From the sequence record NC_013594.1: 37,235 nucleotides of DNA, one strand, 5' to 3'. The notes beneath the pieces were generated by a model. It worked only from the letters and a program-made list of their open reading frames with translations. It had not been told where the DNA came from and searched no databases. Source of the stretch: Escherichia phage D108. Below, one piece after another: positions 1,279-35,805 of the stretch. Each line of letters opens with the position of its first letter. Position 1 is the stretch's first letter. The translations under genes and the position numbers were made by a program.

Positions 1279-3267
1279 ATGAAAGAATGGTATACAGCAA
1301 AAGAGTTGCTCGGTTTGGCAGGTTTACCAAAGCAAGCCACTAACATTACACGTAAGGCACAAAGAGAAGGCTGGGAGTTCAGGCAGGTTGCAGGGACTAA
1401 AGGTGTATCATTTGAATTCAATATCAAATCATTCCCTGTCGCATTACGTGCTGAAATTCTGTTGCAACAAGGGAGAATTGAAACAAGTCAGGGGTATTTT
1501 GAAATCGCCCGCCCCACGCTGGAAGCCCATGATTATGATCGTGAGGCACTGTGGAGCAAATGGGATAACGCCAGCGATTCCCAGCGCAGACTTGCTGAAA
1601 AATGGTTGCCTGCGGTTCAGGCTGCAGACGAAATGCTGAACCAGGGGATTTCAACGAAAACGGCTTTTGCGACCGTTGCAGGGCATTACCAGGTCAGCGC
1701 ATCCACTTTGCGGGACAAGTATTACCAGGTACAGAAGTTTGCGAAGCCTGACTGGGCGGCTGCACTTGTTGATGGACGTGGAGCATCCCGTCGCAATGTT
1801 CACAAAAGTGAATTTGACGAGGATGCCTGGCAGTTTCTGATTGCAGATTATCTGCGACCGGAAAAACCCGCCTTCCGCAAATGTTATGAGCGTCTGGAAC
1901 TGGCAGCCCGCGAGCATGGCTGGAGTATTCCCTCCCGTGCCACGGCCTTTCGCCGGATTCAGCAACTGGACGAGGCAATGGTTGTTGCCTGTCGTGAAGG
2001 TGAACATGCACTGATGCATCTGATACCGGCACAGCAGCGAACTGTGGAACACCTGGACGCCATGCAGTGGATCAACGGCGACGGTTATCTGCATAACGTC
2101 TTTGTACGCTGGTTTAACGGTGATGTGATCCGTCCGAAAACATGGTTCTGGCAGGATGTGAAAACCCGAAAAATTCTGGGCTGGCGCTGCGATGTGAGCG
2201 AGAACATTGATTCAATTCGCCTCTCGTTCATGGATGTTGTGACTCGCTACGGTATCCCGGAGGATTTTCACATCACCATTGATAACACCCGTGGTGCTGC
2301 GAATAAATGGCTGACGGGAGGCGCGCCCAATCGCTACCGCTTTAAGGTAAAAGAGGACGATCCAAAAGGACTGTTTTTACTGATGGGGGCGAAAATGCAC
2401 TGGACAAGCGTTGTTGCCGGTAAAGGCTGGGGCCAGGCAAAACCTGTTGAACGTGCTTTCGGTGTTGGTGGGCTTGAGGAATACGTTGATAAGCATCCGG
2501 CACTGGCTGGCGCATATACGGGGCCTAATCCGCAGGCAAAACCTGATAACTATGGCGACCGCGCTGTTGATGCAGAGCTGTTTCTGAAAACCCTTGCCGA
2601 AGGTGTGGCGATGTTCAATGCCAGAACAGGCCGTGAAACAGAAATGTGCGGAGGCAAACTTTCGTTTGATGACGTTTTTGAGCGTGAATACGCCAGAACG
2701 ATTGTGCGTAAGCCTACCGAAGAGCAAAAACGGATGCTGTTACTGCCTGCCGAGGCAGTGAACGTTTCACGTAAAGGCGAGTTCGCGCTTAAAGTTGGTG
2801 GCTCCCTTAAAGGTGCGAAAAACGTTTATTACAACATGGCGTTAATGAATGCCGGAGTAAAAAAAGTTGTGGTCAGATTTGATCCACAGCAGTTACACAG
2901 CACGGTTTATTGCTACACCCTTGACGGTCGGTTTATCTGTGAAGCGGAATGTCTGGCACCTGTTGCGTTTAATGATGCTGCGGCAGGCCGTGAATATCGC
3001 CGTCGCCAGAAACAACTGAAATCTGCGACGAAAGCAGCAATTAAGGCACAGAAACAAATGGATGCACTGGAAGTGGCAGAGCTGCTGCCGCAGATAGCCG
3101 AACCTGAAGCACCAGAATCACGAATTGTCGGCATTTTCCGGCCTTCCGGTAATACGGAACGAGTGAAGAATCAGGAGCGTGATGATGAATACGAAACTGA
3201 GCGTGATGAATATCTGAATCATTCGCTGGATATTCTGGAACAGAACAGACGTAAAAAAGCCATTTAA
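1279..3267 (+). CDS. A: DDE transposase MuA (662 aa)
   Basis: Mu-repressor-like N-terminal DNA-binding domain; DDE catalytic context present ([30 protein letters not shown]); size and position match MuA. Confidence 0.95.
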
Positions 3268-10011: not shown

Positions 10012-10434
10012 ATGCAGCATGATTTATTTGAACACGATCCGGCAATTCGCCAGTTAATCGGACATATTGATAACATCCCTGCCCCGGAACTGGAATCACG
10101 CTGGCCCCGTTCGGTGGTTGATCTGATTGATGTTCTGGAAAACGAACTGAAACGCCAGAACGTCAGCAATCCCCGTGAGCTTGCCCGTAAACAGGCCGTT
10201 GCCCTGTCCTGTTTTCTGGGTGGGCGGCAGTTTTATATCCCCTGTGGCGATACTATCCTGACCGCGTTACGCGACGATTTGCTTTACTGCCAGTTCAATG
10301 GTCGTAACATGGAAGAACTGCGTCGCCAGTACCGCCTGTCCCAGCCGCAGATCTACCAGATTATTGCCCGCCAGAGAAAGCTGCATACACGGCGTCATCA
10401 GCCTGATCTGTTCTCACCTGAAAGCCCAAAATAA
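10012..10434 (+). CDS. C: C, late-gene transcription activator (140 aa)
   Basis: Mor/C family; size and position (before lys) match Mu C. Confidence 0.85.
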   Translation: MQHDLFEHDPAIRQLIGHIDNIPAPELESRWPRSVVDLIDVLENELKRQNVSNPRELARKQAVALSCFLGGRQFYIPCGDTILTALRDDLLYCQFNGRNMEELRRQYRLSQPQIYQIIARQRKLHTRRHQPDLFSPESPK

Positions 10435-10455
10435 CCGGCATCCTGCCGGTTATTT
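10433..10455 (+). terminator. Hairpin terminator after C (end of middle transcript)
   Basis: aaccggca-tcc-tgccggtt stem-loop followed by T-rich tract. Confidence 0.6.
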
Positions 10456-10525
10456 CCTGTCACCATAATCCCGCACCTGTCACCTGATTTTTTAGACTGC
10501 CATCAGAGATTTTTTTCAGGGAAGC

Positions 10526-16141: not shown

Positions 16142-17441
16142 TCTGGCGTATGCCGCACGCCTCCCGCCAAAGGAGGCTGTCGCGTATTTCCACGCCAAAG
16201 GCTACAACATCACCTGGAACTGGTACGAACAACTGGCAGACGCGCACGCCCGCGCCTTTACCGTTGCCAAAGCCACCCGGATGGATGTACTGACCACAAT
16301 CCGTGAGGAAGTGGAGCGGGCTGTCAGTGAAGGCATCACCCGTGAGGAATTTACCCGCACACTGGCCCCCCGGCTGCAAAAACTCGGATGGTGGGGAAAA
16401 CAAATCATCGTGGATGCAGACGGAAACGCAAAGGTAATCGAGCTGGGCAGTCCGCGTCGTCTGGCAACCATTTATAACGTCAATACCCGTACGGCGTATG
16501 GGGCAGGACGTTATGCGCAGATGATGAATACCGCCGATTTGTACCCGTACTGGCAGTACGTTGCCGTTATGGATGGCAGAACACGCCCGGAACATGCGCG
16601 GCTGCACAATATGGTTTTCAGGTATGACGACATTTTCTGGCAGACGCATTACCCGCCCAATGGCTGGAACTGCCGCTGTCGCGTCCGGGCGCTGTCTGCG
16701 GCCCGCATGAAAGAGCTGGGGTTACAGGTCAGTTATGGTGCGTCATTCATGAATACCCGCGAAGTGGATGCCGGTACGGATGAAAGCACCGGAGAGATTT
16801 TCCGCACATCGTCAACCACGTTTGACAACGGTCGGGTAAAAATGACGCCGGATGTGGGCTGGTCATATAACCCCGGTTCAGCGGCATTTGGTACGGATCA
16901 GGCACTGATACGAAAACTGGTGGAAATTCACGACGCGCAGCTGCGTGAGCAGGTTGTGCAGACGCTGAATAACAGCCGGGAGCGTCAGCTTGCTTTTTCC
17001 CTCTGGCTTAAACGCCTGGCAGGATCACGTCAGACCGGTCATGAAATCCGGGCGCTGGGTTTTATGACGGGATCCGTGGCTGAAGCCGTATATCAGCGCA
17101 CCGGGAATATGCCAGCCCGTCTGCTTGTAATGAACGGGAAAAGTCTGGCGACCACTGCTGATGCCGCCCTGAAAACGGAAGATTTACAGCGTCTGCCGTC
17201 GCTGATGGCAAAACCACAGGCGGTATTGTGGGACAGGGAGAACCACCAGTTGCTGTATGTTGTGGCAACCCGTGACGGCACGGCCCGGATTGTGGTCAGA
17301 ACATCACAGACAGTCGGCAGGCAGAATGACCGGGCGGATGTGCTGGTCAGTATCAGCCGCGTATCTGCACAGTCGCTTGAAGCCGCGATTGCTGACGGGA
17401 TGATTGACATACTGGAGGGGCATGTGGAGGTGAATAAGTGA
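16122..17441 (+). CDS. F: Head morphogenesis protein F (Mu F-like), about 439 aa
   Basis: Follows the portal as in Mu; start at ATG 16122 (track begins at GTG 16086). Confidence 0.8.
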   Translation: MPQQTIDLAYAARLPPKEAVAYFHAKGYNITWNWYEQLADAHARAFTVAKATRMDVLTTIREEVERAVSEGITREEFTRTLAPRLQKLGWWGKQIIVDADGNAKVIELGSPRRLATIYNVNTRTAYGAGRYAQMMNTADLYPYWQYVAVMDGRTRPEHARLHNMVFRYDDIFWQTHYPPNGWNCRCRVRALSAARMKELGLQVSYGASFMNTREVDAGTDESTGEIFRTSSTTFDNGRVKMTPDVGWSYNPGSAAFGTDQALIRKLVEIHDAQLREQVVQTLNNSRERQLAFSLWLKRLAGSRQTGHEIRALGFMTGSVAEAVYQRTGNMPARLLVMNGKSLATTADAALKTEDLQRLPSLMAKPQAVLWDRENHQLLYVVATRDGTARIVVRTSQTVGRQNDRADVLVSISRVSAQSLEAAIADGMIDILEGHVEVNK

Positions 17442-17908
17442 GTCTTGATATGAACGTTGCCGTGGATGTGCGACGTATTCAGCTTGCGCTGGATGAACTG
17501 GGAACCGTCACACGTGACCGCGTCATTCCCCGTGTGATGGCTGCGGCGCTGCTGTCATCCACGGAACAGGCATTTGAACGGCAGGCAGACCCGGATACAG
17601 GGAAAGGCTGGGAAGCGTGGAGCGATTCGTGGCTGGCATGGCGTCAGGATCATGGTTTTGTTCCGGGCAGTATCCTTACCCTGCATGGCGATCTGGCACG
17701 CAGCATTACCACCGATTATGGACAGGATTATGCCCTGATTGGTTCGCCAAAAATTTATGCTGCCATTCATCAGTGGGGCGGTACACCCGATATGGCACCC
17801 CGCCCGGCAGGCGTTCCTGCGCGTCCTTATATGGGGCTGGATAAGACCGGGGAACAGGAAATTTTTGATGCCATCAGAAAACGCGTCAGCGCCGCTCTGA
17901 GGCAATAA
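17438..17908 (+). CDS. G: Virion morphogenesis protein G (156 aa)
   Basis: Position after F; overlapping stop/start. Confidence 0.7.
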   Translation: MSLDMNVAVDVRRIQLALDELGTVTRDRVIPRVMAAALLSSTEQAFERQADPDTGKGWEAWSDSWLAWRQDHGFVPGSILTLHGDLARSITTDYGQDYALIGSPKIYAAIHQWGGTPDMAPRPAGVPARPYMGLDKTGEQEIFDAIRKRVSAALRQ

Positions 17909-18104
17909 ACTGAATCAGACATGAAATCAGCCGCACAGATTTTTTAAAACGCGCCACGGGATTTTTAAACCGGTATTTAACGGTGTATGAATCCCGTTTT
18001 ATCTTCCTTCCACTTTCTTTCTCCAGTACTCAAATAGCATAACCCCAGATTTCCCCGCACCTCCCGCAAACTGACTGCTCACAAACCATGATGAGCAGCA
18101 GGAC
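17909..18104 (+). promoter_or_regulatory. G-I intergenic region: late promoter for I and candidate central strong gyrase site
   Basis: 196-bp non-coding gap at 48-49 percent of genome length, where the Mu strong gyrase site and the C-dependent I promoter map; contains tccccgcacct (18052-18062), shared with the lys upstream region. Confidence 0.5.
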
Positions 18105-19190
18105 ATGAAAAAACACGCGATTGGCATTGCCGCACTGAGTGCGCTGTCCATTGACGATGACGGCTGGTGCCAGCTATTGCCTGCCGGTCATTTCAGTGCC
18201 CGTGATGGTCGTCCGTTTGATGTGACAGGCGGTCAGGGGTGGTTCATCGACGGTGAGATTGCCGGGCGTCTGGTTGAAGGCGTTCGCGCACTCAACCAGG
18301 ACGTGCTGATTGATTACGAGCATAACCAGCTACGTAAGGACAAAGGATTACCCCCGGAACAACTTGTCGCGGCTGGCTGGTTTAACGCCGATGAAATGCA
18401 GTGGCGTGAAGGTGAAGGGTTATTTATCCACCCACGCTGGACGGCGGCGGCCCAGCAGCGCATCGATGACGGCGAATTTGGTTATCTCTCTGCGGTTTTT
18501 CCGTATGACACCGCCACCGGTGCAGTGCTGCAAATCCGCCTTGCTGCGCTGACCAATGACCCCGGTGCCACCGGCATGAAAAAGCTGACCGCACTGGCGG
18601 CAGACCTTCCCGACATCCTTCAACAGGAGAACAAACCCATGAATGAAACGCTGCGCAAGCTGCTTGCGCGTCTTGGGGTGACGGTCCCCGAAAATGCAGA
18701 CATCACCGATGAACAGGCCAGCGCGGCCCTGAGTGCGCTTGATGCGCTCGAAACAGATGCCGGAAAAGTGGCGGCGTTGTCTGCCGAACTGGAAAAGGCA
18801 CAGAAAGCCGCCGTTGACCTGACGAAATACGTCCCGGTGGAAAGCTACAACGCCCTGCGTGATGAACTGGCACAGGCGACTGCACAAAGCGCCACAGCCA
18901 GCCTGAGCGCCGTTCTGGACAAGGCGGAACAGGAAGGCCGCATTTTCAAAAGCGAACGTACCTATCTGGAACAGCTTGGCGGTCAGATTGGCGTGGCGGC
19001 ACTGTCGGCACAGCTTGAGAAAAAACAGCCTATCGCTGCGTTATCTGCCATGCAGACCACCACAGCGAAAATCCCGTCGCAGGAAAAAACGGCGGTGGCG
19101 GTGCTGTCTGCTGATGAACAGGCAGCAGTGAAGGCGCTCGGCATTACAGAGGCTGAGTATCTGAAAATGAAACAGGAACAAGAAAAATGA
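18105..19190 (+). CDS. I: Head protease / scaffold protein I (Z scaffold nested at C-terminus), 361 aa
   Basis: Position and size; Ala/Glu/Gln-rich C-terminal half typical of scaffolding domains. Confidence 0.85.
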   Translation: MKKHAIGIAALSALSIDDDGWCQLLPAGHFSARDGRPFDVTGGQGWFIDGEIAGRLVEGVRALNQDVLIDYEHNQLRKDKGLPPEQLVAAGWFNADEMQWREGEGLFIHPRWTAAAQQRIDDGEFGYLSAVFPYDTATGAVLQIRLAALTNDPGATGMKKLTALAADLPDILQQENKPMNETLRKLLARLGVTVPENADITDEQASAALSALDALETDAGKVAALSAELEKAQKAAVDLTKYVPVESYNALRDELAQATAQSATASLSAVLDKAEQEGRIFKSERTYLEQLGGQIGVAALSAQLEKKQPIAALSAMQTTTAKIPSQEKTAVAVLSADEQAAVKALGITEAEYLKMKQEQEK

Positions 19191-35723: not shown

Positions 35724-35805
35724 TACAGATCGATTATGTCTCAATAACCACACTCAACCCATGATGTTTTTTAAGATAGTGGCGAATTGATGCAAAGGAG
35801 GTGAG
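35697..35805 (+). promoter_or_regulatory. mom operon control region: three clustered GATC (Dam) sites and C-dependent promoter
   Basis: GATC at 35697-35700, 35715-35718 and 35728-35731, spanning the gin stop; then the com SD AAGGAGGTGAG. Matches the Dam/OxyR-regulated Pmom arrangement known for Mu. Confidence 0.7.

Follow-up and report, generated by a model that had tools for sequence, protein, structure and literature searches.

The 196-bp gap between genes G and I of phage D108 is most probably the orthologue of the central G–I control region of phage Mu, a reading to which we assign a probability of about 0.9. On this assignment the gap (positions 17909–18104 of the window, by which we mean the whole 37,235-nucleotide stretch analysed, sequence record NC_013594.1) would hold three partly overlapping cis elements, a strong gyrase site (SGS), a predicted intrinsic terminator and the C-dependent late promoter PI, and no gene. 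The region is an already-known element, among the best-characterised cis elements of phage Mu, and because its essential parts are the same as those of Mu, their function has, judging from the sequence, very likely been retained in D108. The longest internal non-coding stretch of D108 is thereby assigned to well-understood functions.

The window amounts to the whole genome of a Mu-type transposable phage, running from attL to attR. Its first letters are those of the Mu left end, TGTATTGATTCACTTGAAGTACG, and its last are those of the Mu right end (...GCGCCGCTTCA / ...TTCGTGCGCCGCTTCA); since both Mu ends are present and host flank is absent, a percentage of the window is also a percentage of genome length. 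The first 25 kb are 98.2% identical to Escherichia virus Mu_3F6, and from position 1467 on the sequence is 97.7% identical to Mu. The left end with the repressor region (1–1466) gave no megablast match to Mu and matched Mu_3F6 and, in part, SfMu; the immunity type of D108 probably differs from that of Mu.

Gene G, the last gene ahead of the predicted terminator, closes with a TAA stop codon at 17906–17908, and gene I, the first gene downstream of PI, opens with the ATG at 18105, so that the gap comprises exactly positions 17909–18104. It occupies 48.1–48.6% of the genome, and the earlier note on this DNA, which had described a 196-bp non-coding G–I gap about 48 percent along the genome, was accurate in both coordinates and percentage. 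Going by where the CDSs lie in the Mu record, the G–I gap is also the longest internal intergenic interval in Mu. Aligned with Mu 17860–18055, the D108 gap is identical at 191 of 196 positions (97.4%, E=7e-89), the five differences falling at 17911, 17919, 17923, 18010 and 18053. It likewise matches 10 other Mu-type phage records (97.4–99.0% identity) and 41 complete E. coli genomes (97.4–99.5% identity), and matches this strong to Mu, other phages and E. coli genomes show that the gap is not a chance feature. Within it the curated Mu record AF083977 places a gyrase cut site, a TransTermHP terminator, a late promoter and the ribosome-binding site (RBS) of I, the coordinates of which we carried over to D108 with an offset of +49 (Table 1).

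Table 1. Features of the D108 G–I gap, its flanking genes and the gene for the late activator C (positions in the window)
Feature	Position	Strand	Basis and remarks
Gene C (late activator, acts in trans)	10012..10434	+	140/141 identical to Mu C
Gene G (virion morphogenesis / neck protein)	17438..17908	+	156 aa; PF05069, E=3.9e-42; 99.4% identical to Mu G
SGS left arm (-63 to -17 from cut)	17866..17912		Mostly within G; bounds per 130-bp motif, PMC6379681
Central (G-segment) part of gyrase site (-16 to +19)	17913..17948		Motif definition, PMC6379681
Gyrase cleavage site, top-strand cut	17928/17929		From 'gyrase cut site 17879..17880', AF083977 and NC_000929
SGS right arm (+20 to +66)	17949..17995		100% identical to Mu; phased A/T tracts
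Predicted intrinsic terminator	17956..18002	+	TransTermHP feature at Mu 17908-17953 (D108 17957-18002); between G and PI
Late promoter PI	18026..18092	+	66/67 identical to Mu 17977-18043 (67-bp feature, AF083977, PMID 2522923)
Putative 16-bp C-activator binding element (from sequence)	18028..18043	+	16/16 identical to Mu; centre about -43.5
PI -10 hexamer CAAACT	18067..18072	+	Same offset as TAGACT (Plys), TATCCT (PP), TAAGAT (Pmom)
Ribosome-binding region of gene I, GAGCAGCAGGAC	18093..18104	+	RBS at Mu 18044-18046 (D108 18093-18095); adjoins ATG 18105
Gene I (head maturation protease; internal scaffold Z)	18105..19190	+	361 aa; PF10123, E=8.9e-98; Mu_32/Mu_33 annotation

The annotated Mu cut (17879/17880) lies 20 bp past the G stop, and its mapped D108 counterpart sits at 48.15% of the genome, compared with 48.7% in Mu. 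Knowledge of the Mu strong gyrase site reportedly goes back to Pato, Howe and Higgins in 1990 and to Oram et al. in 2006. The cut positions in Mu have been confirmed in vivo at single-base resolution by Topo-Seq, a method that also yielded a 130-bp gyrase motif made up of a central part (-16 to +19) and two arms periodic at ∼10.75 bp (PMC6379681). The cleavage sequence AAATC^AGCC^GCACAG is the same in D108 and wild-type Mu, and given the 4-bp stagger of gyrase cleavage (PMC10052514, PMC6379681) the bottom-strand cut in D108 would fall at 17932/17933. The earlier note had called the interval a candidate strong gyrase site and had proposed aligning it to the core of the Mu site. This alignment shows D108 to be without change from wild-type Mu over 17924–18009, that is, from -5 to +81 about the annotated cut, and the candidate is borne out as the orthologue of an experimentally defined Mu element.

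The two arms of the site differ in character. The left arm, most of which is contributed by the 3′ end of G, has unremarkable A/T periodicity (12–37th percentile) and holds the Mu difference at 17911; the central segment holds two more, at -10 (17919) and -6 (17923), its remainder being identical to Mu. The three D108 substitutions by the cut (-18, -10 and -6) are thus all to its left, and together they form a haplotype (T17911, A17919 and G17923) that in Mu reads A, G, A. To the right, A/T tracts lie at 17939–49, 17961–69, 17974–80 and 17997–18002, with an 18-bp direct repeat at 21-bp spacing among the right-arm tracts. When A/T periodicity at 10.5–11 bp was ranked across the genome, the best window inside the gap came in the top 0.1–0.9%, and the exact +20 to +66 right arm in the top 2.7–3.7%. 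We also ran a surrogate gyrase scan based on exact plus strong/weak matching to the 133-bp consensus string. The site scored 79 of 133 strong/weak matches (genome mean 67, s.d. 6.7; z about +1.7), a score that is dominated by GC content and did not single the site out, and we set the scan aside as uninformative. For the Mu fragment of Sutormin et al. a score of 14.3 with their full weight matrix is reported.

One observation concerns the reagent rather than the phage. The 133-bp 'Mu SGS' Topo-Seq fragment (PMC6379681, supplementary table) has C at the position equivalent to D108 17930 (Mu 17881), one base after the cut; both D108 and the Mu reference have G there. A nu-type mutation may be present in this fragment, which is in wide use.

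The position of the substitutions bears on whether the site is still active. Three of the five differences from Mu lie just left of the cut, two of them within the central -16 to +19 segment; moreover, a review relates that the Mu site was discovered via nu mutants, single-base changes that alter its strength and cleavage efficiency (PMC10052514). It could be argued from this that the -18, -10 and -6 changes have weakened or inactivated the D108 gyrase site, and that the phage keeps only the promoter and terminator and replicates without a functional SGS. We think this very unlikely, for reasons that come both from Mu and from relatives of D108. The right arm is essential in Mu, whereas the left arm is dispensable, its deletion or change having little or no effect (PMC10052514, PMC13284261); in D108 the right arm and the cleavage tetranucleotide are both 100% identical to Mu.

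Variation among relatives was followed in 42 loci encoding relatives of I, taken from species-representative genomes and IMG/VR. The close-relative set, from which a locus with a swapped module (L012, below) was left out, comprises 12 distinct alleles that vary at 17911–17923, 17932, 17972, 18010, 18026, 18053 and 18059. Substitutions cluster at 17911–17923, a stretch that takes in the end of the left arm and the left-hand portion of the central segment; the right arm is nearly invariant, with one change (17972) in one sequence. A17919 and G17923 are also found in the isolated phage Mu_3F6 and in roughly half the close relatives. They are therefore standing polymorphism, carried by genomes that look intact, which again argues against a weakened site.

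Conservation of the region extends well beyond these close alleles. The distant set comprises 19 distinct sequences of the gap; 18 belong to relatives with G and I 50–78% identical, which originate from an Enterobacteriaceae isolate, Kluyvera, Erwinia, Apirhabdus and Edwardsiella. Gap length in this set is about 196–217 bp after correction of two start-codon miscalls. Sequence conservation is confined to islands: a set of three TTTAAAC(G) tracts in phase, with spacings of 21 and 11 bp, a C box that reads CATAACCCC, the -10, and also the RBS. Pairwise identity is 0.67–0.75 in the islands versus 0.42–0.48 between them. At 0.75 pairwise identity, no short block of the gap is better conserved than that of the -10, and a GAGCAGG block at the RBS of I is conserved in relatives.

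The locus set aside above (L012, IMGVR_UViG_2531839192_000008, gap at 2800–3000) has flanking genes 77–100% identical to those of D108 and a gap only 55–67% identical, in which a C box and three TTTTGAAGG tracts in phase are still present. By its appearance, an SGS/PI module has been swapped within an otherwise Mu-like genome.

Two speculative ideas follow on from these comparisons, and we hold them tentatively, as possible rather than probable. The left-side haplotype may tune gyrase affinity or cleavage in the manner of the laboratory nu mutations, with alleles matched in strength to the host; separately, the phased TTTAAAC(G) tracts kept in Kluyvera, Erwinia, Edwardsiella and Apirhabdus prophages may predict functional central gyrase sites outside E. 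coli.

The predicted intrinsic terminator, which overlaps the SGS right arm, went unmentioned in the earlier note. Its hairpin (about 17956–17997; inverted repeat I1) forms in both D108 and Mu; it has a 9-bp stem and an inner 4-bp stem and is followed by UUUUAU. The predicted RNA fold has an energy of -19.8 kcal/mol (z=-3.5), and 0 of 200 shuffled sequences folded as well. Embedded in the right arm, the hairpin at 17956–18002 would end the transcript running through G. A simple promoter and terminator scan of 17700–18300 with a loop limit of 8 found no terminator, the hairpin having been missed because its loop is long. Among distant relatives no such structure is conserved: the consensus fold of the right-arm region across 11 diverse sequences was essentially null (-0.11 kcal/mol). 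Conservation therefore acts at the DNA level, as expected for a gyrase wrap.

The same absence of a shared fold bears on whether the gap might be conserved owing to a hidden small gene or small RNA, either a 50-aa minus-strand ORF (17999–18151) or an ORF like one annotated in Mu_3F6. Such a reading could draw on the stable hairpin, on the five minus-strand ORFs of 23–50 aa that overlap the gap and on the 46-aa hypothetical protein that the Mu_3F6 record places on the minus strand across the gyrase site. We nevertheless regard it as very unlikely. For an RNA, the lack of conserved structure is joined by an Rfam search of the gap that returned no match at E<=1. For a protein, Pfam gave no match to the 50-aa ORF, which runs into the start of I. 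In distant relatives only the A/T tracts, the C box, the -10 hexamer and the RBS stand out as short conserved islands, and they show no reading-frame pattern. The Mu_3F6 ORF (D108 17886–18026) requires T18026 for its start ATG, and both D108 and Mu have G there; its annotation is probably a spurious gene call. The minus-strand ORFs of 23–50 aa are not conserved and are not credible genes, and we retain the reading of the gap as a control region that encodes nothing. As a separate candidate, a recently described prophage small RNA of E. coli O157 was considered and dismissed, as it does not map to the Mu-like prophage gap.

On the plus strand there is no ORF of at least 20 aa in 17909–18104. 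This matters because the G–I junction is an accessory-gene site elsewhere: the acr–aca locus of Pseudomonas Mu-like phages is said to have been described by Bondy-Denomy in 2013 and Pawluk in 2014. In those phages anti-CRISPR genes are flanked by the G homologue and the protease/scaffold gene (PMC3993853, Fig. 1 legend), in agreement with the earlier note, which had named the Pseudomonas G–I junction as their insertion point and had concluded that D108 carries no acr-type insert. Both statements stand: small ORFs of the acr–aca type, with the usual HTH aca gene, are absent from the D108 junction, given its lack of any plus-strand ORF of at least 20 aa, and an acr-type insert is absent from almost all enterobacterial relatives too, the exception being Edwardsiella anguillarum.

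In the Mu-like prophage of Edwardsiella anguillarum (L008, 2310–2985; a second locus, L041, has the same sequence) the G–I gap measures 676 bp. SGS-like phased TTTTGAAAG tracts directly follow G, and then come a low-GC insert (31–42% GC versus 54–64% in the flanks) and a C-box-like sequence before I. The insert holds a minus-strand ORF (2488..2841) of 117 aa with a hydrophobic N-terminus. Its best Pfam hit (E about 0.07–0.09) was below curated cut-offs, PADLOC and PHROGs gave no match, and neither did tblastn against phage genomes. The junction can therefore take cargo in this clade too, placed between the gyrase site and the promoter.

With an accessory-gene site at the Pseudomonas junction and a low-GC ORF inserted at the Edwardsiella one, the D108 gap might be imagined as a scar left by the loss of an accessory, anti-defence cassette. 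Gap length and element order, however, are alike in ∼40 relatives of several genera, which indicates that the cargo-free state is common and probably ancestral in this clade, and little of the 196 bp is left over once known elements and conserved islands are counted. We consider a scar extremely unlikely and take the gap to be an intact control region.

The right-hand part of that region is the late promoter. Mu reportedly has C-dependent late promoters named Plys, PI, PP and Pmom, as set out by Margolin, Rao and Howe in 1989. The four 67-bp late promoters of AF083977 align gap-free, with cCATAAcCCC at one offset in all of them. The right half of the C element, GCATAAC (18037–18043), is common to the four, and a conserved CCCC run occupies 18043–18046; the Mu Pmom dyad TTATGCCCCAATAA is centred at the same point as the PI element. 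These positions agree with the imperfect 16-bp dyad, overlapping the -35 region, that a C dimer binds at -43.5 in each of the four (PMC2582627). The PI -10 is unchanged from Mu and aligns with TAAAAT, GAAAAT or CAAAAT of distant relatives; by analogy with Mu, transcription would start at about 18079. The simple scan of 17700–18300 yielded no complete sigma-70 promoter, as expected given that PI is activator-dependent and has no -35 (PMC2582627). The C-dependent I promoter postulated in the earlier note is thus upheld by the near-complete match to Mu PI, the unchanged C element and -10, and the C protein that D108 itself encodes (Table 1).

The sole PI difference, T in Mu and C in D108 at 18053, falls in the spacer at about -26 and is shared with an IMG/VR relative (L024). 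It affects the first base of a 10-bp block, TCCCGCACCT, common to PI and Plys. In Mu both promoters hold this block (equivalent to D108 18053–18062 and 10469–10478), at offsets 10 bp apart, and the D108 PI copy starts with C (CCCCGCACCT). Other late promoters of D108 have also changed: the Pmom dyad (promoter 35731–35797) reads TTATGTCTCAATAA as against the Mu sequence given above, with two changes at the centre of the site, and Plys (10452–10518) likewise has two changes.

Taken with what is known of Mu, these elements suggest how the gap would operate. Host DNA gyrase would bind the D108 gap and cleave it at 17928/17929. The right arm (about 17949–17995), whose A/T tracts recur about once per helical turn, would wrap one GyrA C-terminal domain, much as seen by cryoEM for E. 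coli gyrase bound to a 217-bp fragment of the Mu SGS, where the right arm wraps one C-terminal domain and its AT repeats face the protein (PMC11626157). The wrapped arm would present the T-segment and so promote fast, processive negative supercoiling. As the site is midway between the phage ends, the prophage would be extruded as a plectonemic loop with the SGS at its apex, a loop that would join attL and attR and lead to transpososome assembly and replicative transposition. In Mu, synapsis of the prophage ends and the prophage domain both require the SGS (PMC3820752), and a central genome position is optimal for it (PMC10052514, PMC13284261). The review PMC10052514 also reports that SGS deletion delays Mu replication by ∼100 min, with the block at transpososome assembly, and that no other strong site tested could substitute for the Mu SGS; by analogy, a replication effect of the D108 site may be expected. 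At the promoter, a C dimer would bind 18028–18043, and C with sigma-70 RNA polymerase, and perhaps the beta sliding clamp, would start transcription a few bases past CAAACT, the PI transcript expressing I/Z, T and then the following head genes. In Mu, C additionally needs the beta sliding clamp, so that late transcription is coupled to replication (PMC12867686), and C dependence of this kind is likely for D108 PI.

The interest of these results is incremental and they do not amount to a discovery. The Mu gyrase site is a standard substrate in studies of gyrase mechanism (single-molecule, cryoEM and Topo-Seq), and the natural alleles of the site, together with the right-arm tracts of distant relatives, constitute free comparative data on which bases matter.

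Set beside known systems, the D108 gap is closest to its Mu counterparts. Relative to the Mu SGS it has the same G–I locus, relative position, cleavage tetranucleotide, right arm and phased A/T tracts, and differs by three substitutions left of the cut that are natural alleles common to other Mu-type phages. Relative to Mu PI, the C element, -10, RBS and distance to the ATG are unchanged and a cognate C is encoded, the difference being the single T-to-C spacer change. The Pseudomonas acr–aca locus occupies the same syntenic junction, which in D108 has no plus-strand ORF; instead, gyrase site, terminator and promoter fill the space. Finally, the pSC101 and pBR322 gyrase sites and the Topo-Seq motif share with the Mu-type site a central cleavage segment and flanks with an AT/GC periodicity of about 10.75 bp, whereas the Mu-type site is strongly asymmetric, its right arm alone being periodic.
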